DNA of 54,640 bases, taken from assembly GCA_035388785.1 (NCBI GenBank), contig DAOOQN010000005.1, forward strand, positions 1 to 54,640, read 5' to 3'. Below the pieces are notes generated by a model. That model was not told the DNA's origin and did not search any database. It was given only the letters and a program-made list of their open reading frames with translations. Origin of the DNA: a bacterium. Its GTDB lineage: Bacteria > Patescibacteriota > Patescibacteriia > UBA2196. This document shows positions 10,600 to 54,347 of the stretch, one piece after another. Each line of letters begins with the position of its first letter. Positions within the stretch are counted from its first letter, which is position 1. The position numbers and the translations under genes are program-made.

Positions 10600-12243
10600 T
10601 TATAAACCCAAATCTGTTTGAAATTTATTTTTTTCAATTTCTACTTTTTTTGCTTTTTTATGATATTCTTTTGACCAAAGTGGTAAATTTAACTTTTGGC
10701 CATGAAGCAATTCTTCAATGGTGATAATCTGAACTTTTGGAAATTCGCCAGCATAAAAATCAACTTTGTAATTTCCCGCCAAAACAGCTTCTTCCAACAT
10801 TGGTTTTGTTGGTTCTTCCAAAGTAATAAATACACCACCGGTGGCTTTTTCTCTTTCAATATCACCCTTTAGAGTGGCAATATCATTTCGTTTTACCCCG
10901 CCACTTTTGACTTGAACTATAATTCTGCCATATTGATTATCGCCTTTTTTAAATCCGATAATCGGCGCCAAAGTGCCGTCAATACCTTTGTCTGCACCAT
11001 GCATATTTTCTTGACTTTTGCTTTTGGCCGGCATGGCATCAATTAGACTCAAAGCCCAATATTCAAATTCAAATCTGTCCTTTTCTGCCAGAGCTTTGGC
11101 GGCTTTCAAATCTTTGGGCAAGCCATCCAAATTAATTTTAATATTTTTGTCCGCAAATTGTTCTTTTAATCTTTTATTGATTAAGTTTATCGCCAGCATG
11201 GTAATATCGATGCCAATCCAATTTCTATCCAATTTCTCTGCCGCTGACACAGTTGTGCCACAACCGCAAAACGGATCCAAAACCCAATCTCCACCTTTTG
11301 ATGATGCTTTAATAATTCTCTCTAAAAGTGCTTCGGGTTTTTGAGTGGGATAACCAAGAGATTCACTACTTATTCCTTGAAGTGGTTTTACATCCTCATC
11401 AAACCACATATCGGAAACTAATTTTCCTTCAGTATCTTTTAAATACATCTTTTTTCTAAATAATCCACCTTTGGTTTTTATCAGCAAATCATTTTTATAC
11501 ATCTCTTCCAATTTTTCTTTTGAGTAAAGCCACATCGCATTTACTCCTTGAAATTCAAAAACTTTTCTACCAGCATATTTTTGTACTCCACCAGCAACAA
11601 TCGCAACCGTTTGATATTGACCTTTTCCGTCTTTATCATCATAATTAAATGATTTTGCGTATTCTTCGTCGGCAGAAGAATAAATTTTATTAAAAACAAA
11701 ATTATCTGATTTGCTATAAAATAAAATTGTATCATGTTGACTTCCAAATTGTTTAGTTTGAGCTTTTGAACTATTTGTTCTTTTCCAGACAATTTCATTT
11801 CTAAAATTTTCTTTTCTAAAAATCACATCTAAAATAAGTTTTAAATAATGGCTGGCAGTTGGGTCGCAATGGAGATATAAACTGCCGGTCTTTTTCAAAA
11901 CGCGATGCAATTCAATCAACCGCACAGTCATCATGGTTAAATACGCCAGCATGTCGTTATTGCCAATCATTTTTTCAAAAGCCAACATTAAATTGGAAAT
12001 ACTATCGTTGGTTTTGCTTACCAAATAATCAAAAGCTTGTTTGGTTTCTTGCGTCCATTGCCAAGAATCCTCAAACGCCTGAATTTGCGCCTCGCTGTCT
12101 TTCAACCCTTCTTTAAAAAGCACATTATAGTTGCGATTGGAATTGAATGGCGGATCAAGATAAATCAAATCAAAAACTTCATCCTGAATTTTCTTCTGCA
12201 AAATTTCTAAATTATCGCCAAAATAAAGTGTTCTATTTTCCAT
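10600..12243 (-). CDS. Site-specific DNA methyltransferase (beta-class N6A/N4C) fused to a C-terminal Mrr-type restriction-endonuclease domain
   Basis: Motif [15 protein letters not shown] lies near the N-terminus. Motif [12 protein letters not shown] lies around aa 320, giving the IV-before-I order of the beta class. The C-terminal roughly 150 aa carry ADKGIDG ... IIVQVKSGG, which matches the D...(Q/E)xK core of Mrr_cat nucleases. Confidence 0.85.
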
Positions 12244-12311
12244 ATCTTATTAGTTAATGATTATTTTAAACTTCCGAATTTCCACTGACGTGGAAATAAT
12301 AATAGTAATAT

Positions 12312-13130
12312 TTAAATTAAAGTTAAAATTTCCTCAATGGCTTTATGTTGCTGACGCCAATCACTTCCCCAACGTGAACTACCTTCTACAGTTAAATAAT
12401 GAATATTGTTTTCTTTGGCCCAACTGGACAAACTACCGGACAAGTTGACATTATATCTGATTTTAAATTTGGCTTTTTTAAAATAAATCTGGGCCCAAGT
12501 TTCTGCTACTGCATCACCAGGAACAGGCATAACATCACTGCCCATATTATGAAAAGCAATCACGTTTTTAATATTTTCATTCTTAATTAAATCCATAACT
12601 ATTTTTGTTTCTGCTTCAGAGCCGCCAAATTCACCTCCAAAAACAACGATAGTTTCATCCTGATAATCGCGACCAGTTTTCCAGGTTGTCTGACTTATAA
12701 AATCAGCCGTAGGAAAATTACGATTTAAATCCACGTCGCGCGCATTGAGACGACCAATTCGACCGCGATGCTTGTAATCTGGAAACTGTCTGGCAACTTC
12801 GGCACCATCTGGATTTAAGCACGGTATGACAAAAACTGTCAGATTAAAAAATTTTTCTTGATTATTATACAACCAATTAACTAAATAATGCGCCAACTTT
12901 ACTGTGCCAACTTCATTACCATGAATTCCACCTATTAGTAATACTTTTTTTTCACCGTGTCCAAATTTATAACACCGAATATTGTGACCCTGGGTTGAAG
13001 TACCCAAAGAATACCATTCGGCCCCACTTTTAATTTGTGGCGCTTTGTCAAAAAAATTATGATAGCGGCCAATTAATCCGCGATAGATTGTGCCGAAAAA
13101 ATATTTAATTTTATAAAATAAATTTTGCAT
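12312..13130 (-). CDS. M14-family zinc carboxypeptidase (gamma-D-glutamyl-diamino-acid peptidase-like)
   Basis: GGIHGNEVGT (HxxE zinc ligands), NPDG, and DLNRNFP motifs are present. Confidence 0.8.
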   Translation of the reverse strand: MQNLFYKIKYFFGTIYRGLIGRYHNFFDKAPQIKSGAEWYSLGTSTQGHNIRCYKFGHGEKKVLLIGGIHGNEVGTVKLAHYLVNWLYNNQEKFFNLTVFVIPCLNPDGAEVARQFPDYKHRGRIGRLNARDVDLNRNFPTADFISQTTWKTGRDYQDETIVVFGGEFGGSEAETKIVMDLIKNENIKNVIAFHNMGSDVMPVPGDAVAETWAQIYFKKAKFKIRYNVNLSGSLSSWAKENNIHYLTVEGSSRWGSDWRQQHKAIEEILTLI

Positions 13131-13134
13131 AATT

Positions 13135-13884
13135 TTATTTCATTCCAACAATTAACATATTTCTACCTTTCTTTTGCAAACCTTTATTTTGTTTTTCTTT
13201 TGAATAAAAATTATTCTTATTGTCACACACCGAACAAAAATTACTTACCACAACCTCACTGACACCTCCATCTTTTAAATCATCCAATATCCACTTTAAA
13301 AGATCAAGATGATAATAACCATGTCGTTTATAAATATGCTCGATGGCCTTTTTTGTCTGTAAAACTGGCTTAAAAACTTTTTTATATTTTAAACAACAAT
13401 CCTGTGCTCCCGGAGTTACCACACAAAATAAATCTTCTGCATTTATTTTAAAATCCTTTTTCAGTTTAGATAATGTCTTGGCAATAATACCAGCGCCGAT
13501 TGGAACATAACCAGCATGAACTAGGGCTAAAACCTTTTTTTTAGGTGCATAAAAAATAATTCCAAAACAATCAGCAAAACTGATGGCTAAATAATACTTT
13601 TTTCTATTCGTTATTAAAGCATCGCCCCAAACTGGTTCAATTTTTTGATCTAAAGAATTCAAACCATCTTTGTTTCTTACAAAAACTACCTTATTTGCGT
13701 TATCAACCACGGGTCCCATATCAATAACATCTCCCGAATTTATTTTTATTTTTTTAAAAAATTTTTTTCTATTATTAAAGACTGTTTTTTCATCGTCAAA
13801 CTTAAAACTCATATTTCCATCTTCCACGGTGGAAATAGCATGTTGCAAATTTTTATGTTTCAATAATTCTTTAATTTGATACAT
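13135..13884 (-). CDS. pgeF: YfiH/PgeF-family (laccase-domain) peptidoglycan editing factor
   Basis: GDALITN, FADCFGI and LVHAGYV motifs match the DUF152/PgeF family. Confidence 0.75.
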   Translation of the reverse strand: MYQIKELLKHKNLQHAISTVEDGNMSFKFDDEKTVFNNRKKFFKKIKINSGDVIDMGPVVDNANKVVFVRNKDGLNSLDQKIEPVWGDALITNRKKYYLAISFADCFGIIFYAPKKKVLALVHAGYVPIGAGIIAKTLSKLKKDFKINAEDLFCVVTPGAQDCCLKYKKVFKPVLQTKKAIEHIYKRHGYYHLDLLKWILDDLKDGGVSEVVVSNFCSVCDNKNNFYSKEKQNKGLQKKGRNMLIVGMK

Positions 13885-15443: not shown

Positions 15444-16481
15444 TCAAAATTGGTGCAGAAACCTTAAATCCCCACTGTGCATTAAACGCACATCATCAAT
15501 ACCATATTTCATCATAGCCAGACGATCAAGCCCTACATTGATATAAAAACCTTGCCAAATTTTTGGATCCAAACCACCAGCCTTTAAAACATTGGGGTGC
15601 GGTGCGCCGCCAGGCATAACCTCCAACCAACCATTATGTTTACACACACCACAACCCTTACCTTGACATACCTGACATTGCATATCAATTTCAAAACCAG
15701 GTTCCACAAAAGGAAAAAAACCGGCGCGCATACGTGTTTTTATAGGATGACCAAAGACGCGCTCCAAAATGGTATTAATCATAATTTTACCAGCTGAAAA
15801 AGCAAAATCATTATTAATAATTAAAGCTTCATACTGATAAAAACAACGTTCGTGTCCGGCATCGGTGGCCTCCATTCGAAAAACGCGGCCGGGATAGACA
15901 AATTGGAACGGCGGCTGATGGGTGCGCATATATTGGACGCTGGCACCGGTCAAATGCGGACGCAAACACAATCTGTCAACACCACTGTTTTTTGCTGACT
16001 GTTTCAGCCAAAAGGTGTCCATAGATTCTCTGGCTGGATGATCAGGTGGAAAATTTAAATCATCAAAAACTTCTTTTTCGTTTGACAACTCATTGCTTTC
16101 ATAAATTTCAAAATTTAAAGAACGAAAAACATCATTCAAATCATAAATAATTTTTGTAATGGGATGCAACCCAGACAGCACCACAGGACGGCCCGGTAAA
16201 CTAGCATCGTAAATTTTATCCTTTTGTTCTTGATTAGCGCCAGCTAAAATATTTTTGGTTTCGCTAAAAATATGTTCAATTTCTAATTTAATTTCATTGG
16301 CCAGTTTACCCACCAATGGTTTTTCTGCGGCTTGCAAATTTTTAATGCTTTTCAAAGCCTCTGTAAACTTACCTCTACGACCCAGATACTCCACACGTAA
16401 ATTTTCTAAAACAGCATCATTTTTAACAGCCTTTATTTTAATTTCAATTTCATCTTTTAAATTTTTTAGTAAATCTTGCAT
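15444..16481 (-). CDS. pheS: Phenylalanine--tRNA ligase alpha subunit
   Basis: Class II motifs are present (FPPDHPARESMDTFW, GRVFRMEATDAGH, FFPFVEPGFE, GLDRLAMMKYGIDDVR). The start is set at MQDLLKNL to avoid overlap with the upstream gene. Confidence 0.95.
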   Translation of the reverse strand: MQDLLKNLKDEIEIKIKAVKNDAVLENLRVEYLGRRGKFTEALKSIKNLQAAEKPLVGKLANEIKLEIEHIFSETKNILAGANQEQKDKIYDASLPGRPVVLSGLHPITKIIYDLNDVFRSLNFEIYESNELSNEKEVFDDLNFPPDHPARESMDTFWLKQSAKNSGVDRLCLRPHLTGASVQYMRTHQPPFQFVYPGRVFRMEATDAGHERCFYQYEALIINNDFAFSAGKIMINTILERVFGHPIKTRMRAGFFPFVEPGFEIDMQCQVCQGKGCGVCKHNGWLEVMPGGAPHPNVLKAGGLDPKIWQGFYINVGLDRLAMMKYGIDDVRLMHSGDLRFLHQF

Positions 16482-17279: not shown

Positions 17280-20200
17280 TTATAATTCGCGATATTGGCA
17301 GATTTCCTTAAAATCACAATAATGACAATTAAAGACTGACGGCGTAGCGGAAAAATCAGCCTGCATAATTTTATCAGTAATAACCATAATTTTTTCTTTC
17401 ATCTTATCAATTTCCTTGTCCGTACCTAAAAACGAAACAGCTGTGCCATCGTCAAGATAATAAAAAGTTAATTTTTCTAGTGGCCAATGTAAATTTTCAC
17501 TGGCCGCAATTTGATAAATTAACAATTGATCTTTTTCGACAGTTTTTTCATTTTTAGAGACACCGGTTTTATAATCTATTATTTCAAATCCACCAGTAGC
17601 CAGCTTATCGACTCGATCAATAAAACCTTTAATAGTACGAGTTGCTAGCTTAAAAGTAAAACCAATTTCTAAAAATTGTACCTGGGGAACACCAAATTCT
17701 TGCAGTTGAGCATATATCTTTTTGAGAGATTTTTCACCCAGTTGTCTATATTCCTCTTTTTGTTTTTTATCAACATACCAATCATCCACCCATGATTCAT
17801 TATAAAAATTTAACAAGTGTTCCCAACTTGGTAATTTTTTTGATTTAGTATCATCTACACCATTGATTGATTTTTCAGTACCAGAAAAAAGTTCACTTTG
17901 TATAGAAGCGTTGTTATCTTTTATTAGCGCAAAAAACTTTTGCAAAGTAGAATGCATGGTCTTGCCATAACTAAAACTGGCTTTGCCCATGACCGGTACC
18001 TTAACTACAAAACTTAAATAATATTGATAGGGACACGTAGCAAAAGCCTTAAGCTGTGAAAAAGAAAAATGACCTTTTTCAGCTGGCAGCGTTGATGTCG
18101 CAAATAAATTTTTATGAACTGATTCAGCTGGCGCTAAACTCAGGTCATGACCTAAATTATTTTTCTTGCTTTTTGTCTGTATAGCTTCAGGCACAGCTAA
18201 ACCAACTTCAAATAAAAAACGCGATAACTTTTTGCGTTCTTTACCGCCATAATTTTCAGCTGCAGTAAAAAATAAACCCTGCTTGGCACGCGTTATGGCG
18301 ACATAAAAAAGTCGTCTTTCTTCCTGCAAATGAACATCGCCGGTTGGAACTTTTTCTTTAATTAATTCAACCGGCAATTCAATGGATTCTTTTCTTTCCA
18401 GTGAAGGAAATCTTTTATCAACTAGACCAGCCACAAAAACATATTTGAACTCCAAACCCTTGGCCGCGTGTACGGTCATCACTTTTATTGCCTCCGGGCC
18501 TTCGTCAGATTCAGGAATTAAACTTCCCTCTTCACCAGCCTCTAGCTCTAAACTAATTAAATTGATAAAATTTTTAACTGAATTATTACCAAGTGTGTGG
18601 TTTCCGCCAGAGGCGGATCCGCCTCTGGCGGAAAAATCATCAATCTTCTTGCCCAACTGATTTAGATAGCTAAAGGCTTGTACATCATTTTTTTTGAGCA
18701 AATATTGGCTATAATTAAAATCTTGCAAAAAAGCCAGGATCACATGCCGCACACTTTTTTCTTGAACTAAGGTGGTGTGTTTATTTAGCAATCCCAAAAT
18801 TTTTGCAACCTTTCTTTTGGTGTCCTCGGAAATATGACTAAGTAAGTTAATTTGTTTTAAACATTCAAATAGTGACCAGGCTTTGCGGGTGGCAAAACGA
18901 CTGAACTCCATTAAATCTTCGGTGGCAATATTGAGTGTCGGTAAATTTAACACACGCCACAAAGCCAATGATTCGTGATAATTATCCAACAATTTTAAAT
19001 AGGCCAACACATCCATTATGATTTCTTTTTGATACAAGCCTTTGGATGCCACAAAAGTATGTGGCAAGTCTTGCGTGCGCAAGGCTAATAAAAACGCTTC
19101 AGCTTGTGAATTGGCACGCACCAAAATAGCAAAATCATTCCAAGTGAGAGCTGTTTCACTCTCCTTTAAAGTGATAATCTTTTCCACCACCATGGCAGCC
19201 TCAGCGCCGGCATCTTCAGCACGTAGAAGTTCAATGCTACCTAAATCAGCTGATTGTGCTACAAGTTTTTTACTTAAAGTTGCGACATTATTAGAAATTT
19301 TTTTAAGCTTAACTTCCAAACGTTCGGGGTTGTTAAGTTGAATAAAATTATATGCCAAATCCAGAATATTTTGGCAAGAACGATAGTTATGTGTTAAATA
19401 AATTTCATGAGCATTTTTAAAATCATCTTTAAACTGTAAAATATTGGCTACCGAAGCACCACGAAATTTATAAATTGACTGGTCGTCATCTCCCACAACA
19501 GTTAAGTTGCCGTGACCCCCAGCCAAAAGCTTGATCAATTCATACTGAGCAAAATTTGTATCCTGAAATTCATCCACCAAAATATATTTAAATTTTTCTT
19601 GATAGAGTTCTAAGATATGCGGCCGGGCGCGCAAAAGTTTTAAAGTATAATTAATCAGATCCCCAAAATCTAAACTACTGTTTTCTAACAATAATTGTTG
19701 ATAAACATGATAAGCGTTAGCAATTTCTTCCAATCTTTTAATTTCAAATATATCTGTTTCATCATTACCTACCCCTACCCCCTCCTTATAAAGGAGGGGG
19801 GCTTCGGTCATCTCCCCCTTGATAAGGGGGAGTCGCCCCACAGGGCAGAGGGGGTCTTGTTTTAATATTTTAATATTTTCATTTTTTAATATAACTCCGC
19901 CACTCGCCTCCATACTGTCTAAATTAATTTTTAAATCCTCAACGTGTTTTAAATAATCCTCTGGCCAAATTTCCTCATCTTTACAGCGAGAAAAATGTTT
20001 TATTAATGCATGGATAAACTTGGTCGGATTGCCCAAGGGCTGGTAATAATCTAGATTAAAACAATCTAAATTTTGACGCACCAAAAGCCATTGTTCGGTT
20101 TGATTTAAGAGTTTAAAGTCAGATGACAAACCAATATCCAAGCCATGCTGTTGCAATAAACGTTCAGCAAAAGCGTGAAAAGTCATAATCCATAAATCCA

Positions 20201-34348: not shown

Positions 34349-35773
34349 TTATACTCTTGGAAATAATGGTTCGCTTTTGATAATTTTCTCGGCAGTAAAG
34401 GTTTTGATTATTTTTTCCGCAGTTGTTGGCATAAAAGGTCCGAGTAGGATTGCCACATTGAGAATATCTTGGGCAATTGGTTCTAGAATTTTCTTTAATT
34501 CTGACGTATCTTTGATTTTCCATGGCTCGGTTCTAGTGATAGTTTCGTCACAGGCGCGGAGTTTGGCCCAAAGAATTTCTAAGGCTTCATTGAATTTATA
34601 TTCTGATAATTTTTGATCAAATTTATTTTTTAACTCTCCGTCACTATTGGCATCCAATTTGAGTGATAAATTGTTTTTATCAATCAAATTAGAAACGCGG
34701 GAGACAAGATTGCCAAGACCATTACACAAATCAGCAGTATAAGCTTCTTTAAATTTCTCTTCAGTATAATCACCATCTTCGACTGGGGAAATTTTAGCCA
34801 GCAAATAATAACGCAGTGCATCAGTACCAAATTTTTTTAATAATTCAAAAGGATTAACCACATTGCCAAGAGATTTACTCATTTTTTCACCACCCGCAGT
34901 TATAAAACCATGAATAAAAATTTGTTTGGAATTTGCTAAACCCGCCGACATCAACATAGCCTGCCACATAGCAGTTTGCTGGCGCAAATTATCTTTACCA
35001 GCTACCTGTACCCCTGGCCAAAAATTATTAAAATTATCTAGATTCTCTGGCCAACCCAAACAAGAAATATAATTAACTAAAGCATCAAACCAAACATACA
35101 TGACTTGAGTCTCGTCACCAGGCACACTTACACCCCAAGGCATTTTTTCTTTCAGACGAGAAATACTAAAATCTTCTAAACCGCTCATCACAAAATTTTT
35201 TATTTCATGCAAACGATGAGCAGGCACAACAAATTCTGAATTTTTTTCATATAATTCTAAGAGGGCTTGTTGATATTTAGAAAAACGAAAAAAATAATTT
35301 TCTTCAGCAATTAATTCTAATTCTAAGTTGGGATGCACCGGGCATTTATTATCAACTAATTCTGATTCTGTTTTTTCTAGCTCACAACCCACACAATATT
35401 TCACACTATAATTTTTTTTATAAATATCACCATTTTTCTCGCAACGCTGCCAAAATTCTTGGACTGCTTTTATGTGTTCGGCATCTGTAGTGCGCACAAA
35501 ATTGTTATAACTTAAATTTAAAGCTGATTTTAAGCTGTCAAATTTAGCTGCATATTCATCGCAATATTTTTGAGGATCAATTCCAAGTTCCAATGCTTTT
35601 CTATAAATTTTTAAGCCATGTTCATCTGTGCCAGTATTAAAAAATACTTTATCGCCTTGTAGGCGATGCCAACGTGCTAAAGCATCAGCTTGAATAATTT
35701 CTAAAGCAAAACCAATATGCGGTTCGGCATTGACATAGGGCAGAGTTGTAGTGATGTAATATTTATTTCTCAT
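34349..35773 (-). CDS. metG: Methionine--tRNA ligase
   Basis: TTTLPYVNAEPHIGF (HIGH region), the CxxC knuckle YCVGCE...CPVH, and KMSKSLGN are present. Confidence 0.95.
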   Translation of the reverse strand: MRNKYYITTTLPYVNAEPHIGFALEIIQADALARWHRLQGDKVFFNTGTDEHGLKIYRKALELGIDPQKYCDEYAAKFDSLKSALNLSYNNFVRTTDAEHIKAVQEFWQRCEKNGDIYKKNYSVKYCVGCELEKTESELVDNKCPVHPNLELELIAEENYFFRFSKYQQALLELYEKNSEFVVPAHRLHEIKNFVMSGLEDFSISRLKEKMPWGVSVPGDETQVMYVWFDALVNYISCLGWPENLDNFNNFWPGVQVAGKDNLRQQTAMWQAMLMSAGLANSKQIFIHGFITAGGEKMSKSLGNVVNPFELLKKFGTDALRYYLLAKISPVEDGDYTEEKFKEAYTADLCNGLGNLVSRVSNLIDKNNLSLKLDANSDGELKNKFDQKLSEYKFNEALEILWAKLRACDETITRTEPWKIKDTSELKKILEPIAQDILNVAILLGPFMPTTAEKIIKTFTAEKIIKSEPLFPRV

Positions 35774-44077: not shown

Positions 44078-45211
44078 CTAAATTTTTGAACTGCGGATAT
44101 TGGTTTTAATTTGCTGTAGCAAATTAGTGTAAAATTCCAAATTGTTTAAAGTGGCCAGACGTTGTGCTAATGGTTCTTTAATTTTAAATAAATGATGCAA
44201 ATAAGCTTTAGAATAAATCTGTAATTCCGGAAGGGCACTTTTTTTATTGATGGGTTCTAGATTGTTTTTAAACTGGGCACCGTTAATATTTAAAACATTA
44301 TAAAAATCTTTACTACTTAGACGATCTGAAAATTGATACAGACGTCCGTGCCGTCCCTCACGAGTCGGAATAACACAATCAAACATGTCCCAACCCAATT
44401 TAACACAACGCAGAATATCTTCTGGAGTACCCACACCCAAAGCAAATTTAAGATAATTATCTGGAATATTAGCAGCCGTGGTGCGTAAAATATCAGCTAA
44501 AAAAATACCTTTTTCATCAACTGGTCGCGCGCCATAACCCAAGCCATCAAAACCAATAGCGGCCAAACTGGTGGCACATTCTTGTCTCAAAGTTGGAAAA
44601 ATTCCACCCTGCACCACACCAAATAACAAAGGCCTGAACTTACCTTTTAAGTGACGTTTTTTTATTTGCCGATCGTATTCTTGTTTACACAACTTGGCCC
44701 ACGCCACTGTGCGTTTGACTGCTGCACTGGCCTGTTGTTGATCAACATCATTCGGCCGACAGTCATCCAGACACACAACCATGTCGGTACCTAAGTCAAA
44801 CTGAATCTGAATGGATTTTTCTGGTGTTAATTCATGCCGTGAACCGTCAAGAGGCGAACTAAAAATAACCTTATCAGCTAAAATTTTTCCACTTTTAAAA
44901 TTGTTTTTATGAATTAAAGAAAAAACTTGAAAACCACCACTATCAGACAAAAGTGGTTTTTTATAAGCCATTAGTTTATGTATACCCCCTATTTTTTTTA
45001 TTCTGTCAACACCGGGATTTAAATAAAGATGATAAGTGTTGACCACCATAGCCGGCACACTAATTTTCTCCAATTCCTCCACACTTAAATGTTTTACCAC
45101 ACCATAAGTCGCATCAGGCATAAAAAATGGTGTTTCAAGAGTACCGTGGGCAGTTTCAACCATACAAATTCTGGCAAGTGATTTTTTGGATTGAATAATT
45201 TTCTTTAACAT
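44078..45211 (-). CDS. tgt: tRNA-guanine transglycosylase (queuine tRNA-ribosyltransferase family)
   Basis: TPFFMPDAT, LLSDSGGFQVFSL, GLGVGTPED-type (ALGVGTPEDIL), CVIPTR, and HNL.FY-type (LNNLEFYTNLL) motifs are present. Confidence 0.9.
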   Translation of the reverse strand: MLKKIIQSKKSLARICMVETAHGTLETPFFMPDATYGVVKHLSVEELEKISVPAMVVNTYHLYLNPGVDRIKKIGGIHKLMAYKKPLLSDSGGFQVFSLIHKNNFKSGKILADKVIFSSPLDGSRHELTPEKSIQIQFDLGTDMVVCLDDCRPNDVDQQQASAAVKRTVAWAKLCKQEYDRQIKKRHLKGKFRPLLFGVVQGGIFPTLRQECATSLAAIGFDGLGYGARPVDEKGIFLADILRTTAANIPDNYLKFALGVGTPEDILRCVKLGWDMFDCVIPTREGRHGRLYQFSDRLSSKDFYNVLNINGAQFKNNLEPINKKSALPELQIYSKAYLHHLFKIKEPLAQRLATLNNLEFYTNLLQQIKTNIRSSKI

Positions 45212-45228: not shown

Positions 45229-45816
45229 TTAACTAACGTTTTCAATTTCAAACTTTAAAATATTATTTATTTTATCAAAATTGAAACTATCTTTAAATTT
45301 TATAATTTTTTCCATCTTGTTTTTGACAATAAATTCTAATTGCTGTTTTAAATTTGTCTCCTGTTTTTGAGCTGGGTTTAAACCCAACAGATGCAAAAGT
45401 TTAACCGATGCCGCAGTTTGTACTATTGCATAATCTGTTTTTGTGTATTCCAGAAAATCCAAGTATTTTTCAACTAATTTAAAAATATTTTTATCTTGAT
45501 GATTTTCTAAGGTCAAACTATCCAATAAATTTAAAAACCAACCAGCTGATTTGACTTTAATTAAATTATTTTTTATCGACATGTAACTTTTAACCATCTG
45601 CGCACCAGTTAACTGATCAATACTTTTGCCAGAAACAACGTTGAGATAAGATAAACTGACCGGCTCCAAATGGCCGGCTAGTTTACTTAAAAGTTTTTTA
45701 CCACCACGCGCCGCCAGCACCAACTTACCTTTTTCTGCTGAATAAACTGTCACCAACAGATCATCTTCACGAAAAGCTTGACGCTTCAAAATTATGGTAT
45801 GCAAATTATAATACAT
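45229..45816 (-). CDS. recO: DNA repair protein RecO
   Basis: 195 aa. The N-terminal OB fold HTIILKRQAFREDDLLVTVYSAEKGKL is typical of RecO. Confidence 0.75.
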   Translation of the reverse strand: MYYNLHTIILKRQAFREDDLLVTVYSAEKGKLVLAARGGKKLLSKLAGHLEPVSLSYLNVVSGKSIDQLTGAQMVKSYMSIKNNLIKVKSAGWFLNLLDSLTLENHQDKNIFKLVEKYLDFLEYTKTDYAIVQTAASVKLLHLLGLNPAQKQETNLKQQLEFIVKNKMEKIIKFKDSFNFDKINNILKFEIENVS

Positions 45817-45825
45817 TGCTAATTT

Positions 45826-48800
45826 TTATAATTGGACAATTTTAATTTTAATTTCGGCCGTGTTGATTTTAATTTTATCCGCAGCTTCAGTTGATAAAGT
45901 TAAATTGTCTGCCAAGGTTTGTTTTTGCAACTCCGTCGTATATTTAACAAAAACAGATTTTAAAATTTCATCATCAGTGTGGTATAAAATTTGTATTCTA
46001 TCTTGAATGGTCAACTTCATTTCCTTGCGTAAATTATTAATGGCACGCACCAACTCACGTAACAATCCCTCTGCTTTGAGTTCATCAGTCAAGGTAGTAT
46101 CCAGTTCTACTTTTAGTTCCCCACTATCATCTTTTTCAAAGCTGATGCTTTTAATATTTAACTCGTCTTTTATCAACTCAATATATTCATTTGAAAATTG
46201 AAAATTTAAAATTGACAGTTGCTGCAACGGTTGCCGAATCCTTATACCAGCTTCAGCGCGTTTTGCCAAACCCAATTCAACAATTTTACGCACAGTATTC
46301 ATTTCATCCAAAATTTTCTGATTGATTAATTCTTCATGACAAATCGGCCAATCTTCTAAATGGACTGATTCTTTTAGCACACCACAATTTTTACCTAGTT
46401 CTTGATAAATGTATTCAGCAGAAAATGGGATAAAGGGCGCTAATAATTTTGATAATTCAAACAAAACTTTGCCCAAAGTATAAATGGACTGTAATTTATC
46501 AACTTGGTTGTCGCCTTTAAACCTGTCGCGTGAACGACGCACATACCAAATTGATAATTCATTGATAAATTCTTCAATTTTTCTAGCCGCCGTAGTAATA
46601 TCATAATTTTCCAAACTTTGCGAAACTTCTTTAATTAATAAATTAAGTTGAGCGGCGATCCATTGATCCAGAATGTTGGTGGGTTGTAATGCTGTAAATT
46701 CAATTGAGGCAACTTCATTTACATAAGTTTGATAAAAAGTTAAGGTGTTAAAAAGAGTGTTAAACATGCGTGCTGACTCTTTCAAAAAAGATTCATCAAA
46801 TCTTTTGGGTTCACCCGGCTGATTAACTGTATATAAATACCATCTGACGACATCGGCACCATATTTTTCAAACATTTCCCAAGGATTGATGACATTGCCA
46901 ACATGCTTTGACATTTTTTGACCCTTTTTGTCCAATAAATGCCCCAGACAAATAACATTTTTATAAGGTGATTCCTTGCCCAATAAGGTAGCAATGGCCA
47001 ACAAGGTATAAAACCAACCACGCGTTTGATCAATGGCTTCGGAAATATATTCAGCCGGATATTGCTCTCCAGAATCAATTTTCTGCCTATTCTCAAAAGG
47101 ATAATGAATCTGAGCCAAGGGCATGGCACCTGAATCAAACCAACAGTCCATGACTTCGGGTGTACGTTTCATGACACCAGCGCACTTTTCACACTGAAAA
47201 GTAATTTCATCAATAAACGGACGGTGCGGATCAAAATATGGCTGCTCATGATTTTGAAACATTTTATCAAAAGAACCTATTAACTGACCTTTGGCTGGAT
47301 AATTATTTTTCCAAGTTTCTAAATCTGTTTTTCCATTAAATAAACTAATAAAAGAACATAGGGTGTCACCATGACTAACAACTAAGATTTTTTTACCCAC
47401 ATATTTTTCTTCCATTTCTATCACAAATTGACGCACGCGCGCTTTTAACTGCTCCATATTTTCACCTTGCGGCCAGCCAATTTCCAAACGCTTTTTTGAA
47501 GGACCAATATTTTTTTCTACCCACTCATCACTTTTGCCTTCAGCTTCGCCCATGCGTACTTCCCACAACAAATCACTTTTTTCTGGTGGCAAATTTAAAC
47601 TGGTGGCAACAAGAGCGGCGGTTTCTGTGGTCCGTAAAAATGGCGAATGCACAATTACATCTATACCACTTTGTTTTAAAGCTGGTACTAAAGATTCAAT
47701 AGTTTGTTTGCCATTTTCAGTTAAATGATAATGATCGTTTTCCAAACGACCACACAGAATATCTTGCACATTATTTTCGGCCTCGCCATGACGAAGCAAA
47801 TAATAATGATTATTAAGTGGTTTAAAAACATTTAATTCCTGATAACTACCCACCACTTTTTGTGTTCTGCAACCATTACATATCCAAACCGGAAGTGGTG
47901 TACCCCAATAACGCTCACGCGAAATAGCCCAATCTTTGGCTTCTTTAAGCCACTCGCCAAAACGACCTTCTTTGATATGTTCAGGAAACCAATTTATGGT
48001 TGAATTATTTTTAATTAACTGTTCTCTTAATTCACTCATCTTAAAAAACCAAGAATCTTTGGCATAATAAATCAATGGCGAATCACAGCGCCAGCAAAAA
48101 GGATAATCATGGGCGTGCGGTGCGCTAGCAAACAAAATTCCGCGTTCCTCTAAATCTTTAATAATTTCAACTTGCACATCTTTTACAAATTTTCCTTGCC
48201 ACTTGGATACCAATTCATTAAAAGTACCGTCAAGATTGACTGTGTGCACTTTTGGTAAACCGATTTTCTCACCCAACTCATAATCATCAACGCCATACAT
48301 AACGGCTGTGTGCACCACACCCGTGCCATCTTCGGTGGAAACAAAATCAGCTGCATAAACCTTGAAAGCATTTTGATAATTGTCTGTTTTTTCCGTAATT
48401 ACTCCCGGAAACAATGGTTCATATTCCAGCCCAACCAAATCTTTACCTTTAAACTCTTCTACTATTTTATACTCCTCATCTCCAAAAATTTCTTCAACTT
48501 TAGCCTTAGCTAAAATAAATCTTACCAACTCGCCTGCCCCTGCGTCTTTTTTTTCTATTTTTACATAGTCAATATTTTCACCGACAGCCAACGCTACATT
48601 ACCAGGCAGTGTCCACGGTGTGGTTGTCCAGGCTAAAATTGAAGTATTTTTATCTTTAATTAAATGAAACTCAATTACGACCGACTCTTCTTTTATGTTT
48701 TTATAGCCTTGTGCCACTTCATGAGAAGACAAAGCTGTGCCGCATCTTGGGCACTGAGGCACAACCTTGTAACCTTTATACATCAAACCTCTGTCTGAAA

Positions 48801-49275
48801 TTTGTTTAATAATCCACCACAACGTTTCAACATAATCATTATCATAAGTCACATAAGCTGCTTGCATATCCACCCAAAAACCAATCCGTTCAGTAATTTT
48901 TTCCCATTCTTCCACATACTGCCAAACACTTTCCCTACACTGTTGATTAAACTCTTGGATACCATATTCTTCAACTTCTTTTTTGTTTTTTAAACCCAGC
49001 TTTTTTTCCACTTCCAATTCGACTGGCAAGCCATGAGTATCCCAACCGGCCTTTCTTTGCACCTTAAAACCACGCATGGTTTTAAAACGCGGAATCAAAT
49101 CTTTAAACGCCCGAGCTTCTACGTGATGAATGCCAGGCTTACCATTGGCAGTCGGCGGACCTTCATAAAAAACAAAACTGCCCTGACTAGATTGCTTGGA
49201 TAAAGTTTTTTTGAAAATATTTTTTTCCTGCCAAAATTTCAAAATCTCTAATTCTTTGTCTGGTAAATTAAACAT
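45826..49275 (-). CDS. ileS: Isoleucine--tRNA ligase (type 2-like) carrying an internal histidine-phosphatase domain
   Basis: PPTANGKPGIHH (HIGH region), the TTTPWTLPGN editing domain, WAISRERYWGTPLPVW, and KMSKHVGN (KMSKS) are present. At 1149 aa it is about 190 aa longer than expected because of the insertion annotated separately. Confidence 0.95.
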   Translation of the reverse strand: MFNLPDKELEILKFWQEKNIFKKTLSKQSSQGSFVFYEGPPTANGKPGIHHVEARAFKDLIPRFKTMRGFKVQRKAGWDTHGLPVELEVEKKLGLKNKKEVEEYGIQEFNQQCRESVWQYVEEWEKITERIGFWVDMQAAYVTYDNDYVETLWWIIKQISDRGLMYKGYKVVPQCPRCGTALSSHEVAQGYKNIKEESVVIEFHLIKDKNTSILAWTTTPWTLPGNVALAVGENIDYVKIEKKDAGAGELVRFILAKAKVEEIFGDEEYKIVEEFKGKDLVGLEYEPLFPGVITEKTDNYQNAFKVYAADFVSTEDGTGVVHTAVMYGVDDYELGEKIGLPKVHTVNLDGTFNELVSKWQGKFVKDVQVEIIKDLEERGILFASAPHAHDYPFCWRCDSPLIYYAKDSWFFKMSELREQLIKNNSTINWFPEHIKEGRFGEWLKEAKDWAISRERYWGTPLPVWICNGCRTQKVVGSYQELNVFKPLNNHYYLLRHGEAENNVQDILCGRLENDHYHLTENGKQTIESLVPALKQSGIDVIVHSPFLRTTETAALVATSLNLPPEKSDLLWEVRMGEAEGKSDEWVEKNIGPSKKRLEIGWPQGENMEQLKARVRQFVIEMEEKYVGKKILVVSHGDTLCSFISLFNGKTDLETWKNNYPAKGQLIGSFDKMFQNHEQPYFDPHRPFIDEITFQCEKCAGVMKRTPEVMDCWFDSGAMPLAQIHYPFENRQKIDSGEQYPAEYISEAIDQTRGWFYTLLAIATLLGKESPYKNVICLGHLLDKKGQKMSKHVGNVINPWEMFEKYGADVVRWYLYTVNQPGEPKRFDESFLKESARMFNTLFNTLTFYQTYVNEVASIEFTALQPTNILDQWIAAQLNLLIKEVSQSLENYDITTAARKIEEFINELSIWYVRRSRDRFKGDNQVDKLQSIYTLGKVLFELSKLLAPFIPFSAEYIYQELGKNCGVLKESVHLEDWPICHEELINQKILDEMNTVRKIVELGLAKRAEAGIRIRQPLQQLSILNFQFSNEYIELIKDELNIKSISFEKDDSGELKVELDTTLTDELKAEGLLRELVRAINNLRKEMKLTIQDRIQILYHTDDEILKSVFVKYTTELQKQTLADNLTLSTEAADKIKINTAEIKIKIVQL
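47236..47814 (-). other. Histidine-phosphatase (PGAM/branch-1) domain inserted within ileS
   Basis: IleRS residues about 488-680 carry YYLLRHGEAENN (RHG catalytic His), HSPFLRTTETA, MGEAEG, and LVVSHGDTL (second His). It sits between the conserved ...VVGSYQEL and DPHRPFIDE... segments, which are normally only about 15 aa apart. Confidence 0.7.
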
Positions 49276-50679: not shown

Positions 50680-51210
50680 CTATTTTTTCTTTTTCACTAC
50701 TGATTTTTTAATTTTCTTTGCCACACTAAAATTACCTGTCTTGGCACTTTCTAATTTTATAAAATCAGCTACGCCCATTTTTATACTTTCAGTAAATTCG
50801 CCGCTGGTAAAAATTATTGTGCCTTTTAAAGATTTATCTACAAAAACATTTAATTTGTACAAAGATCCAAAAGCGCCCATAGTACCGGGTTTAACTTTAA
50901 AGTGTACTTTCATGACCGCTTCTTTGGGAATTTCAACTTTGGTAATACGCGTGTCTTTGGTGGTCATAACCTGGGCCAACTTTTTTAAATCAATATTTTT
51001 ATCCGCCGGCACCATGGCAATGGCGTAGGGTTTTTGACCGTGCTCCAAAGACTTGTTCATTTTAACCAATAAACTTTTGGCAATTGTATTGAGCTTAACT
51101 TTTAGGGTTGCTGCCGCATCATAAGCGGTAAAAACTTTTTTATGTTTGATTATTTCATATTTAACCTTGTTTTCGGTTAAAGTTTTAAGAAGTTTTTTAG
51201 CAATAGGCAT
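50680..51210 (-). CDS. YbaK/EbsC/ProX-type aminoacyl-tRNA editing (deacylase) domain protein
   Basis: 176 aa. It shows the YbaK-fold pattern (IAKSLLVK near the conserved Lys, and G..G...P..) and has a basic C-terminal tail. Confidence 0.7.
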   Translation of the reverse strand: MPIAKKLLKTLTENKVKYEIIKHKKVFTAYDAAATLKVKLNTIAKSLLVKMNKSLEHGQKPYAIAMVPADKNIDLKKLAQVMTTKDTRITKVEIPKEAVMKVHFKVKPGTMGAFGSLYKLNVFVDKSLKGTIIFTSGEFTESIKMGVADFIKLESAKTGNFSVAKKIKKSVVKKKK

Positions 51211-52931: not shown

Positions 52932-54347
52932 TTAATTATTAATATTAATATTTAATTCTTTCAATTGTTTCTCGCTTACCTCGCTTGGCGCGTCCATCAA
53001 AGGATCATGCGCGTCAGCAAGTAACGGAAAAGCGATCACTTCCCGAATCGATTTTTCACCCTGCAGAATTGAAAGCAAGCGGTCAAAGCCCGGCGCAATT
53101 CCACCGTGTGGTGGCACACCAAATTCAAAGGCTTTAAGCAAATGGGCAAACGATTCTTTATCTTTAGCTGTAAAACCGATCAAATCAAAAATTTTCCTTT
53201 GCAGATTGGCATCGTGAATTCTGATACTGCCGCCACCAACCTCCCAACCGTTTAAAACCAGATCATGCTGATAAGATTTCACCTTGCCTGGATCACTATC
53301 CAACAAAGGAATATCTTCCTCTTTAGGCGCGGTAAACATATGATGTGATGGTGCCCACTTATCCCCTGCTCCTTGAAAAAAATCTTCTGCAGTTTGTTCG
53401 GTAAAAAGTGGGAAATCAATTACCCAAGCAAAAGCCAATTCGTCTTTATCTTCTTTGTTTTTTCGAAGATCTGGCTTATCAACCCCATACTTTTCCATCA
53501 CTTCTTTATGTTTCAATCGTGGCCAAGGCTCAAAAGTAAAATGTTTCTCGGGCCACAATTCTTTGACCATTTTTGTGAACATCTCTTCAGCCAGCTGTAA
53601 AATATCATCTTGTTTTACAAAAGACATCTCCATGTCAATCTGATAAAATTCTCCCGGGGAACGATCAGCTCTGGCATCTTCATCGCGAAAACATGGCGCA
53701 ATCTGAAAATATTTCTCCATACCAGCCACCATGAGCATCTGTTTATATTGCTGTGGACTTTGTGGCAAAGCAAAAAACTTACCCAGATATTTTCTGGATG
53801 GCACCAAATAATCCCGCGCGCCCTCTGGCGTAGACTTGGAAAGAATTGGCGTTTGAATTTCCACAAATTCTTTATCATGTAGATAGTTACGCACAAAGTG
53901 CATCATCTTGGAACGCATCAACATATTGTTTTTCATACGTTCATGGCGTAAATCCAAATAGCGATATTTCAGGCGTAATTCTTCGCCTGCCTGCAGAGTT
54001 TCGTTTTCAATTTCAAATGGCGGCGTTTCCGCTTTGGATAAAACCGCAATCTTTTTGGCCAAGACTTCCACTGTGCCAGTCGGCGAATTGGCATTAATTT
54101 GTTTTTCACCACGCGCTTGCACCACGCCTTCAATTTCCAAAACAAATTCCGACCTGACTTCACTCAAAGCCGCTTGCGATGTTTCATCTAGTTCACTCGG
54201 CACACAAACCACCTGCACAATTCCCCAACGGTCGCGCACATCCAAAAACACAATCTTTCCCATATTACGGCGATTATTCACCCAGCCGTTGAGTTTGACT
54301 GTTTCTCCGACTTTTTTGGTTGTTTCGGTTGATATTGTTCTAAACAT
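52932..54347 (-). CDS. aspS: Aspartate--tRNA ligase, bacterial type but lacking the GAD insertion domain
   Basis: An OB N-domain is present. Motif 2 is FRDEDARADRSPGEFYQIDMEMSF and motif 3 is GIAPGFDRL. At 471 aa, DKPDLR is joined almost directly to WVIDFPLF. Confidence 0.93.
   Translation of the reverse strand: MFRTISTETTKKVGETVKLNGWVNNRRNMGKIVFLDVRDRWGIVQVVCVPSELDETSQAALSEVRSEFVLEIEGVVQARGEKQINANSPTGTVEVLAKKIAVLSKAETPPFEIENETLQAGEELRLKYRYLDLRHERMKNNMLMRSKMMHFVRNYLHDKEFVEIQTPILSKSTPEGARDYLVPSRKYLGKFFALPQSPQQYKQMLMVAGMEKYFQIAPCFRDEDARADRSPGEFYQIDMEMSFVKQDDILQLAEEMFTKMVKELWPEKHFTFEPWPRLKHKEVMEKYGVDKPDLRKNKEDKDELAFAWVIDFPLFTEQTAEDFFQGAGDKWAPSHHMFTAPKEEDIPLLDSDPGKVKSYQHDLVLNGWEVGGGSIRIHDANLQRKIFDLIGFTAKDKESFAHLLKAFEFGVPPHGGIAPGFDRLLSILQGEKSIREVIAFPLLADAHDPLMDAPSEVSEKQLKELNININN

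Follow-up and report, generated by a model that had tools for sequence, protein, structure and literature searches.

A histidine phosphatase domain nested in the isoleucyl-tRNA synthetase of a Patescibacteria genome, and its relatives within and beside other class Ia synthetases

The stretch of DNA considered here (the window) is a 54,640-nt contig (DAOOQN010000005.1, assembly GCA_035388785.1) from a member of the UBA2196 lineage of the Patescibacteriota. Its isoleucyl-tRNA synthetase (IleRS) gene, ileS (45826..49275, minus strand, stop codon included), encodes a 1149-aa type-2 enzyme with a second enzyme domain, a histidine phosphatase (HP), nested in its catalytic fold at aa 483–673 (47257..47829), as located by Pfam (PF00300), AlphaFold2 (AF2) modeling, and Foldseek. 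Unless otherwise indicated, window coordinates below are on the minus strand. The HP subfamily is Patescibacteria-wide and is genomically tied to class Ia aminoacyl-tRNA synthetases, either within them or as a neighboring gene. The architectural and evolutionary part of this account, taken by itself, is in our view nearly certain; toward the account as a whole, with the nested HP active, coupled to the synthetase, and acting on the class of substrates suggested below, we lean only slightly.

The phosphatase domain and its insertion point

The Pfam His_Phos_1 family (PF00300) matches aa 492–656 of the window IleRS (E = 5.7e-33; 114.7 bits against a cut-off of 21.7; profile positions 2–168 of 194), between two parts of tRNA-synt_1, and by the open reading frame (ORF) list the whole gene is a single uninterrupted ORF with neither stop nor frameshift. 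An earlier note, made from the window sequence, had proposed a continuous frame with an embedded HP of this family, and this is borne out; the limits it gave (47236–47814, or aa 488–680) are a few codons off the domain boundaries. The IleRS segments it quoted as flanks are all present, at aa 449–469 (a 21-letter stretch), 474–481 (VVGSYQEL), 682–700 (DPHRPFIDEITFQCEKCAG), and 709–716 (MDCWFDSG), as are the phosphatase motifs LLRHGEAENN (493–502), HSPFLRTTETA (543–553), MGEAEG (575–580), and VVSHGD (632–637).

The best solved relative of the window enzyme is IleRS2 of Priestia megaterium (8c8w; E = 7.9e-265). In alignment to it, residue 475 is the counterpart of window residues 482 and 674 alike, which puts the insertion of some 190 aa, the length estimated in the earlier note, at a single point. 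IleRS relatives were collected by a search of ~5.8 billion proteins, of which the best 120 were taken. In a joint alignment with 120 homologs, the stretch corresponding to Cys469–Asp682 is 17–31 aa long in the 64 IleRS without an insert (roughly the 15 or so residues that had been supposed normal) and 203–222 aa in the 56 that have one, always at the same place; in the window it is 212 aa. The insert is flanked by Cys466-x-x-Cys469 (47869..47880), directly N-terminal of it, and Cys695-x-x-Cys698 (47182..47193), C-terminal, both at least 90% conserved in an 80-sequence alignment. The HP domain thus grows from the tip of the second, four-cysteine zinc knuckle of the catalytic domain, as a domain within a domain. 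To judge by secondary structure in the AF2 model, its long first strand (484–495) and its last strand (665–673) look like a two-stranded stalk leaving the knuckle.

A whole-protein AF2 model, built from an 80-sequence alignment, has a mean pLDDT of 90.5 and a pTM of 0.84, with block means of 82–97, mostly above 90, in the insert region. Foldseek comparison of this model to IleRS2 and yeast IleRS gave TM scores, normalized to the target, of 0.79–0.88 (matches to IleRS1 were worse), from which the synthetase fold appears to be undisrupted.

Could the arrangement be an artefact, with two contigs wrongly joined within ileS, or a selfish element, such as an intein, that is removed from the mature protein? 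The insert is bracketed by an imperfect direct repeat of 19–20 nt (47249–47268 and 47818–47837; 75–79% identity, spacing 569 nt), and its distribution on the IleRS tree is patchy. Repeats of such size and identity are however expected by chance in DNA of 35% GC, and given this AT-rich composition and the age of the insertion, the pair is probably a chance occurrence. An assembly chimera is ruled out by the same junction in dozens of independent assemblies and species, together with even composition: GC content and skews run smoothly through both junctions. Among these assemblies are that of a 94% identical protein (P0001), independently assembled and of the same architecture, and that of the nearest genome (L009, Patescibacteria group bacterium UBA2196), where the insert is 86% identical and the gene order ileS-recO-tgt is the same. 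An intein or mobile insertion is likewise ruled out, as the earlier note had argued from the lack of splice-junction motifs: scans of the window IleRS against Pfam and NCBIfam found no intein, Hint, or endonuclease family, the junction residues are not conserved as Cys, Ser, or Thr, and a complete phosphatase fold takes up the whole of the insert. Distances between inserts moreover follow those between their hosts (Mantel r = 0.77, see below). We regard this explanation as effectively refuted.

The host synthetase

The two parts of the host enzyme retain the signatures of an IleRS. NCBIfam ileS (TIGR00392) matches it at 904 bits (cut-off 621) in two stretches, aa 2–482 and the remainder. The first part (aa 1–482; 47830..49275) has the CP1/editing domain and the first halves of both the catalytic fold and the second zinc knuckle (Pfam tRNA-synt_1, aa 11–477); the second (aa 674–1149; 45826..47256) has the rest of the catalytic fold, the anticodon-binding domain (Anticodon_1, 870–1018), and the type-2 C-terminal domain (DUF5915, 1017–1147). 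This C-terminal organization, which lacks a zinc-binding domain, is that of a type-2 enzyme, as are the closest structures, IleRS2 and yeast IleRS. The HIGH signature takes the non-canonical form GIHH (aa 48–51; 49123..49134), with H50 at least 90% conserved and H51 invariant in 80 aligned relatives from the Candidate Phyla Radiation (CPR). In KMSKH (aa 787–791; 46903–46917), K787, M788, S789, and K790 are invariant in the same alignment, and the editing-site residues WTTTPWT (216–222), H322, and D331 are all there, with little or no variation. The [A/G]xHH variant of HIGH is reported to give rise to mupirocin hyper-resistance in IleRS2 (preprint 10.64898/2026.02.03.703510). The window protein falls outside the MupA/MupB mupirocin-resistance families, each of whose models gives 858 bits where 1900 are required, and is related to them only as one type-2 enzyme to another. 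The ileS-recO-tgt order is common to relatives with and without the insert, which argues for orthology with the housekeeping gene. With all of its signature residues kept, the window ileS is predicted to encode the organism's housekeeping type-2 IleRS, and the purifying selection on its core (dN/dS of 0.089, see below) fits a functional enzyme.

An apparently intact, capped-type phosphatase

Both catalytic histidines and both arginines are in place, as the earlier note had listed them, and so is the acid. Arg495-His496 (47788..47793) form the RHG motif, with His496 as the predicted phospho-accepting nucleophile; Arg548 (47632..47634) is the second phosphate-binding arginine; Glu572 (47560..47562) is the predicted general acid; and His635 (47371..47373), in the SHGD motif, is the second catalytic histidine. 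R495, H496, G497, R548, E572, and H635 align with the matching residues of PspA (4ij5). An AF2 model of the insert alone (pLDDT 96.7) was matched by Foldseek to PspA, a phosphoserine phosphatase of H. thermophilus (4ij6), PhoE (1h2e/1ebb), and CobC (6e4b) at TM 0.76–0.83 and probability 1.00; the other top matches, at TM ~0.8, were a riboflavin-pathway HFP (9mmh), GpgP, Rv2419c, and Rv3214. The predicted fold is that of the capped phosphatases of small substrates (PhoE/PspA/CobC-like).

The insert had been described as PGAM-family. It is a branch-1 histidine phosphatase, by profiles, motifs, and fold of the PhoE/PspA/CobC type and not a mutase. Assignment as a phosphoglycerate mutase (dPGM/GpmA) is ruled out by scores of 76 bits against a cut-off of 225 for dPGM_arch, 34 against 81.7 for pgm_1, and 16–36 against 305–421 for the GpmA models. 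The insert reads E-V-R-M-G-E-A-E-G-K and S-H-G-D where dPGMs carry E-R-H-Y-G and H-G-N; its motifs are therefore phosphatase-type and not mutase-type. Its scores in fact fall below every NCBIfam equivalog cut-off, the best being that for dPGM_arch and 69–74 against 163 for CobC, so that a substrate is not transferable by homology.

The catalytic residues are very highly conserved. Among 57 inserts, with identity to the window copy down to ~25%, R495, H496, N502, R548, E572, H635, and a few family positions are at least 90% conserved, and in 25 diverse inserts R495, H496, R548, E572, E605, R613, and H635 are strictly invariant. Also examined were 166 HP domains, drawn from the 150 top-ranking representatives in a library of 1.84 billion proteins: the Arg-His pair, the second Arg, and the second His are present in every domain covering these positions, the acid is Glu or Asp in all but two, and the complete eight-residue signature is found in 142, including every copy in multi-copy proteins. 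Between the window and the nearest genome, the ratio of nonsynonymous to synonymous substitution rates (dN/dS) comes to 0.112 over the 191 codons of the insert and 0.089 over the 958 of the synthetase core, with dS ~0.65, which indicates purifying selection on the insert about as strong as on the essential enzyme. A dead or merely tolerated HP domain is very unlikely.

The HP domain might instead be a structural, regulatory, or ligand-sensing pseudo-enzyme, for example one that binds a phosphorylated metabolite and so tunes IleRS. The domains appended to eukaryotic synthetases are mostly non-catalytic, and several copies per protein, as described below, would be unusual for a catalytic add-on. 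Pseudo-enzymes normally lose their nucleophile or acid, however, while here the complete catalytic set is invariant in inserts of 25% identity and in all copies, at a dN/dS of 0.11; a non-catalytic role is thus highly improbable.

Distribution and evolution

The window protein is far from alone. At least 56 other 90%-identity clusters among the best 120 IleRS relatives carry PF00300, in proteins of 1115–1262 aa; their source names include Komeilibacteria, Zambryskibacteria, Pacebacteria, Paceibacterota, and “Patescibacteria group”. A search of representative proteins with the insert alone yielded 7262 matches at E ≤1e-3 and 474 at E ≤1e-10, of which the best 150 were mapped by phmmer/hmmsearch, Pfam, and NCBIfam. 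Most of these 150 are IleRS with the HP at the same position as in the window (site A), in tandem copies in three cases (P0190, P0196, and P0242). Two other sites are used in IleRS: site B, between WFDSG and the DQTRGWF helix (about window aa 727–741; P0187, P0138, P0142, and P0123), and site C, just before the anticodon-binding domain (about aa 852–866; P0124, P0138, P0142, and P0212), where there are often two domains per protein. An IleRS may thus have two or three HP copies. ValRS has HP domains at the homologous site A (P0206 and P0213) and at site B (P0222), and a ValRS fragment of 1161 aa (P0121) has four in tandem, all catalytically intact. The copies within one protein are only 20–36% identical to each other, suggesting old duplications or separate acquisitions.

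The remainder of the best 150 include stand-alone double-HP proteins and about 50 free-standing HP proteins of ~190 aa, 33–44% identical to the insert. Two proteins (P0163, 387 aa, and P0166, 392 aa) are TsaC/Sua5-type threonylcarbamoyl-AMP synthases, of the t6A pathway, with a C-terminal HP of the same subfamily; TsaC, too, forms an adenylate and is connected with tRNA. The HP-bearing ValRS of Patescibacteria also take in P0181 and three genomic loci (L056, L079, and L085), in two of which (L079 and L085) argS is 1.3–1.5 kb downstream of valS.

Genomic contexts were compared in GTDB species-representative genomes, where a scan with a six-sequence insert alignment confirmed 403 relatives. The best 80 loci, nearly all from Patescibacteria, were classified by six-frame ORFs and phmmer: in 51 the HP is inside IleRS, in three inside ValRS, and in 26 it is a free-standing gene, and none of the 80 has it in an unrelated context. 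In one genome (L041), an HP nested in IleRS is accompanied some 6 kb downstream by a second, free-standing HP gene (18235–18885), which on the HP tree branches apart from all the others. Several loci whose genes are clearly those of CPR bear submitter labels such as “uncultured Bdellovibrionales”, “Gammaproteobacteria”, or “Saccharibacteria” (among them L015, L022, L032, L034, L079, and L085), and there are also the labels “Baltobacteraceae” (P0075 and P0088) and “Binatia” (L044). These are probably binning or taxonomic-labeling errors.

In a neighbor-joining tree of IleRS cores, forms with and without the insert interleave. The insert evolves ~1.5–2 times faster than the core, and the two sets of distances are correlated (Mantel r = 0.77, reached by none of 999 permutations); the insert is therefore old and has mostly passed down vertically together with its host. 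Fitch parsimony on an IleRS-core tree calls for at least five switches between free-standing and embedded states, and the HP tree broadly mirrors the host tree, with ValRS-embedded domains nesting among the IleRS-embedded ones. The trees are neighbor-joining trees without support values, so the number of switches is approximate and their direction is not polarized, but the HP has evidently passed between neighboring gene and nested domain several times.

Genomic neighborhood

The free-standing HPs begin with a Met of their own and end directly after the last strand. They are annotated simply as “histidine phosphatase family protein” or “PhoE”, and come from Moranbacteria, Minisyncoccota, and other Patescibacteria. 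Their usual setting is argS, some small ORFs, the HP gene, zero to two variable genes, an ileS without insert, sometimes a NUDIX gene, and then recO and tgt. The HP in such loci is a separate gene with translational coupling, in the conserved order argS-HP-ileS. Upstream, argS is on the same strand in 24 of the 26 free-standing loci; the gap lies between −108 and +236 bp in 23 of them and amounts to 2351 bp in the other; downstream, ileS is on the same strand in all 19 loci that have more than 1.3 kb of downstream flank, at −34 to 8411 bp. In four loci HP and ileS abut (L030 and L077) or overlap (L065 and L073). The HP ends in a real stop codon in each, and ileS has its own Met one or two codons past this stop in the first pair and starts inside the short overlap in the second. 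Among the 51 embedded loci, argS is found within 4.2 kb upstream of ileS in 31. Comparison of the two kinds of locus indicates that one and the same phosphatase is either the gene before ileS or a domain inside it. A conserved operon combined with repeated fusion is a standard comparative-genomic signature of functional partnership, and suggests one here.

The same loci might also be the trail of a housekeeping metabolic phosphatase that is mechanistically unlinked to aminoacylation: its ancestral gene would have lain in an argS-ileS operon, and would have been captured repeatedly into permissive surface loops in streamlined CPR genomes, fusion bringing co-expression or nothing at all. Its structural neighbors are metabolic phosphatases, the module is absent from some close relatives, and insertion falls in loops or at hairpin tips, where differences in length are tolerated (site A is 17–31 aa long even when empty). 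The free HP is moreover closer to argS than to ileS, with variable genes intervening before ileS and gaps of up to 8.4 kb, and gene proximity as such favors local recombination into ileS. But such hitch-hiking accounts less well for independent insertion into ValRS at two sites and into IleRS at three at least, valS not being a known neighbor of the HP gene, although argS lies near it in two loci (L079 and L085). Nor would it lead one to expect that all multi-copy and tandem nested copies retain their catalytic residues, that switches between neighboring and nested states recur, or that none of the best 80 GTDB species-representative relatives is in an unrelated context, and nesting in the catalytic fold of an essential enzyme should be costly unless it is beneficial. 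We think a hitch-hiking phosphatase unlikely, though not far-fetched.

A NUDIX gene overlaps the ileS stop codon in six loci (L001–L003, L022, L073, and L080); coordinates within the respective loci are 12918–13457 (L001), 11712–12251 (L003), 15867–16436 (L022), 12089–12658 (L073), and 9269–9829 (L080). NUDIX domains are also found nested in IleRS (P0020, aa 328–442, locus L008; P0215, aa 226–343), and P0215 has both a NUDIX and an HP domain. An initial indication from P0020 that NUDIX uses the HP insertion point was ruled out, the domain being in the CP1/editing region in both proteins. These NUDIX are ADP-ribose-pyrophosphatase/NudE-like (2yvm, E = 1.1e-13; NudE model 40.8 bits, under its cut-off).

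In genomes with a free-standing HP, the strand opposite argS-HP-ileS carries tmRNA and smpB some kb upstream of that group (tmRNA regions at L022 3075–3478, L065 4858–5207, and L073 5685–6085, and also in L029, L024, and L088; smpB in L001–L004), and the region is a conserved translation-maintenance cluster. Between argS and the free HP gene, no T-box or other RNA leader, which would have linked the HP to sensing of tRNA-Ile, was detected as an Rfam family at threshold, the only such hit being the tmRNA upstream.

In the window, ileS is followed directly by recO (45229..45816; Pfam RecO_N/RecO_C) and then by tgt, for queuine tRNA-ribosyltransferase (44078..45211; Pfam TGT, E = 1.2e-102), in the order kept in its relatives. 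Upstream of scpA-scpB-ileS there is a gene for a YbaK-type free-standing aminoacyl-tRNA editing protein (50680–51210), in the same position in L006. In the 54.6 kb no second HP gene and no valS was found, and the only other class I synthetase is a short MetRS of 474 aa (34349–35773); there is also a class II synthetase of Asp/Asn/Lys type (52932–54347). Nearly all ORFs of at least 110 aa in the window (1–54640) are on the minus strand, the few plus-strand ones overlapping minus-strand genes; GC skew is negative throughout the profiled part (44.0–50.9 kb), and overall GC is 35%. Scans of the window detected neither a tRNA gene nor an Rfam family that reaches its gathering threshold.

Possible functions

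The roles raised in the earlier note, namely action on nucleotide by-products, action on phosphorylated tRNA ends, and a tolerated capture, are still the hypotheses to be weighed. If the nested HP is an active phosphohydrolase, as its residues suggest, His496 would attack the terminal phosphate of the substrate while Arg495, Arg548, and His635 hold that phosphate, and Glu572 would protonate the leaving group. Selection may favor physical or stoichiometric coupling of this activity to amino-acid activation. What the synthetases concerned have in common, and share with TsaC, is ATP chemistry that releases pyrophosphate (PPi) and AMP. Together with the link to NUDIX proteins and the precedent of MutT1 (described below), this favors removal of a product or by-product. 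The adenylate-forming reaction common to IleRS, ValRS, ArgRS (the neighbor), and TsaC might accordingly supply the substrate, as a small phosphorylated product or by-product; we make this suggestion tentatively. Pyrophosphate is one candidate; others are nucleotides, for example ADP, AMP, a fragment from the breakdown of dinucleoside polyphosphates (ApnA), or one derived from ADP-X. Histidine phosphatases can hydrolyze terminal phosphoanhydrides. Hydrolysis would pull activation forward, or clear by-products at their source, and in some lineages the ADP-ribose-pyrophosphatase-like NUDIX, encoded after ileS or nested in IleRS, may cooperate.

Several observations fit this proposal poorly. The structures closest to the HP are not those of pyrophosphatases but of phosphomonoesterases, whose substrates are organic phosphates such as phosphoserine or ribazole phosphate. 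Its fusion partners among the best 150 representatives are IleRS, ValRS, and TsaC only, where a general pyrophosphatase should be found fused to many more PPi-forming enzymes. ArgRS, the tightest neighbor of the free HP, needs tRNA for arginine activation and makes no ApnA. The argS-HP-ileS order could in part reflect inherited synteny. The module also seems dispensable in some lineages: the closest insert-less relative (P0008) has no free-standing HP within 8 kb of ileS, the HP being either simply absent from this locus or elsewhere in the genome.

A different kind of substrate is the tRNA itself, or the synthetase. The HP might strip phosphate from the 3′ CCA end of tRNA and so enable charging, the phosphate being a 3′-phosphate or 2′,3′-cyclic phosphate that nuclease damage has left behind, or the pyrophosphate from a toxSAS toxin, which a NUDIX might cut first; or it might reverse an inhibitory phosphorylation of the synthetase by a toxin kinase, of the kind that HipA carries out on GltX. 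The superfamily includes protein phosphatases (SixA, PGAM5, and Sts-1). IleRS, ValRS, and ArgRS all bind tRNA 3′ ends, the neighborhood is rich in genes for tRNA and translation rescue (tgt, smpB, tmRNA, and the YbaK-like editing protein), and a synthetase with several copies would be well suited to capturing a macromolecule as substrate. Pyrophosphorylation of the CCA end by toxSAS toxins blocks aminoacylation (bioRxiv 10.1101/2021.04.30.441581; PMC11559606). A NUDIX and an HP could take off a pyrophosphate in two steps. The predicted fold is however of the capped PhoE/PspA/CobC type rather than the open SixA type (sixA model TIGR00249, 33 bits against a cut-off of 74.5), and TsaC, another fusion partner, does not bind tRNA. 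Neither a toxSAS nor a kinase toxin was seen near the HP loci, and we know of no histidine phosphatase that acts on RNA ends. Repair of tRNA ends or of the protein seems distinctly unlikely.

Taken more broadly, the HP, with NUDIX in some lineages, might constitute a synthetase-coupled phosphohydrolase system of Patescibacteria, built into class Ia synthetases or translationally coupled with them and acting in cis on a molecule that the synthetase produces or binds, either in removal of PPi or ApnA-type by-products where they arise or in restoration of phosphorylated or pyrophosphorylated tRNA 3′ ends for charging. This too is a possibility about which we have more doubt than confidence.

Relation to known systems

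The nearest well-studied counterpart of the host is IleRS2 of P. megaterium (8c8u/8c8v/8c8w). The two share a domain order (catalytic fold, CP1/editing, zinc knuckles, anticodon-binding, and type-2 C-terminal domains), a GIHH-type variant of HIGH, and a fold (Foldseek TM normalized to target 0.79–0.81), but the window IleRS has an enzyme domain of ~190 residues at the position of residue 475. We know of no solved or described IleRS with anything at this position. The counterparts of the insert are PhoE/YhfR, PspA (iPSP), CobC, and the GpmB-type phosphatases, which have the same fold (TM ~0.8), the same RHG, Arg, Glu, and His set, and the same phosphatase-type E-x-x-x-G-x-x-E-G-K and S-H-G-D pattern; these are free-standing enzymes with known metabolic substrates, whereas the window HP is nested in a synthetase.

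Other fusions offer partial parallels. Mycobacterial MutT1 is a NUDIX protein with a C-terminal histidine-phosphatase domain and acts on nucleotides (PMC11784022). As in several Patescibacteria lineages, where NUDIX genes or domains accompany ileS, an HP is here teamed with a NUDIX, but MutT1 is an end-to-end fusion with no link to a synthetase, the ileS-linked NUDIX are ADP-ribose-pyrophosphatase-like rather than MutT-like, and the window ileS has none. In the RNase H/acid phosphatases of Rv2228c type (NF005567), a CobC-like HP is joined to an enzyme that acts on nucleic acids; the phosphatase portion of the model (profile positions 180–326) aligns with the insert at 63.8–68.4 bits, far under the cut-off of 326, and there the fusion is C-terminal instead of nested and the partner is another enzyme. 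A precedent for an extra enzymatic domain in IleRS itself is ileS_w_GNAT (NF040702), with an added GNAT acetyltransferase. Both domain and location differ, and this model, with its cut-off of 1999, gives the window protein a score of 302. Beside it may be cited the domains appended to eukaryotic synthetases, which also differ from the window HP in kind and location.

The earlier note knew of no described IleRS with this architecture. Full-text literature searches turned up no description of a histidine phosphatase or PGAM domain in synthetases generally or in those of the CPR, and a 2026 preprint on the domain architecture of 96,219 IleRS mentions neither phosphatase nor Patescibacteria. The proteins themselves are nevertheless widespread in Patescibacteria and already in public databases, unremarked, where they go by unspecific labels like “class I tRNA ligase family protein”. 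Both the HP-in-IleRS architecture and the link to synthetases seem, then, to be undescribed and unexplained in the literature.

Implications

Bacterial aminoacyl-tRNA synthetases are among the most architecturally conservative of enzymes, and new catalytic domains in them are rare; an intact second enzyme nested in the catalytic fold of one appears not to have been described before. Automated annotation hides these synthetases under generic names. The pattern is on the scale of a phylum and takes four forms: operon partner, nested domain at several sites, occurrence in two synthetases, and multiple copies. The insertion sites in IleRS and ValRS are a natural example of permissive positions for domain insertion, of possible use in protein engineering. 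Were the HP confirmed as a synthetase-coupled phosphohydrolase, it would represent a new kind of synthetase-associated activity beside editing, and once its substrate was identified, a new auxiliary step, in aminoacylation or in the upkeep of tRNA, would come to light in organisms of minimal metabolism.

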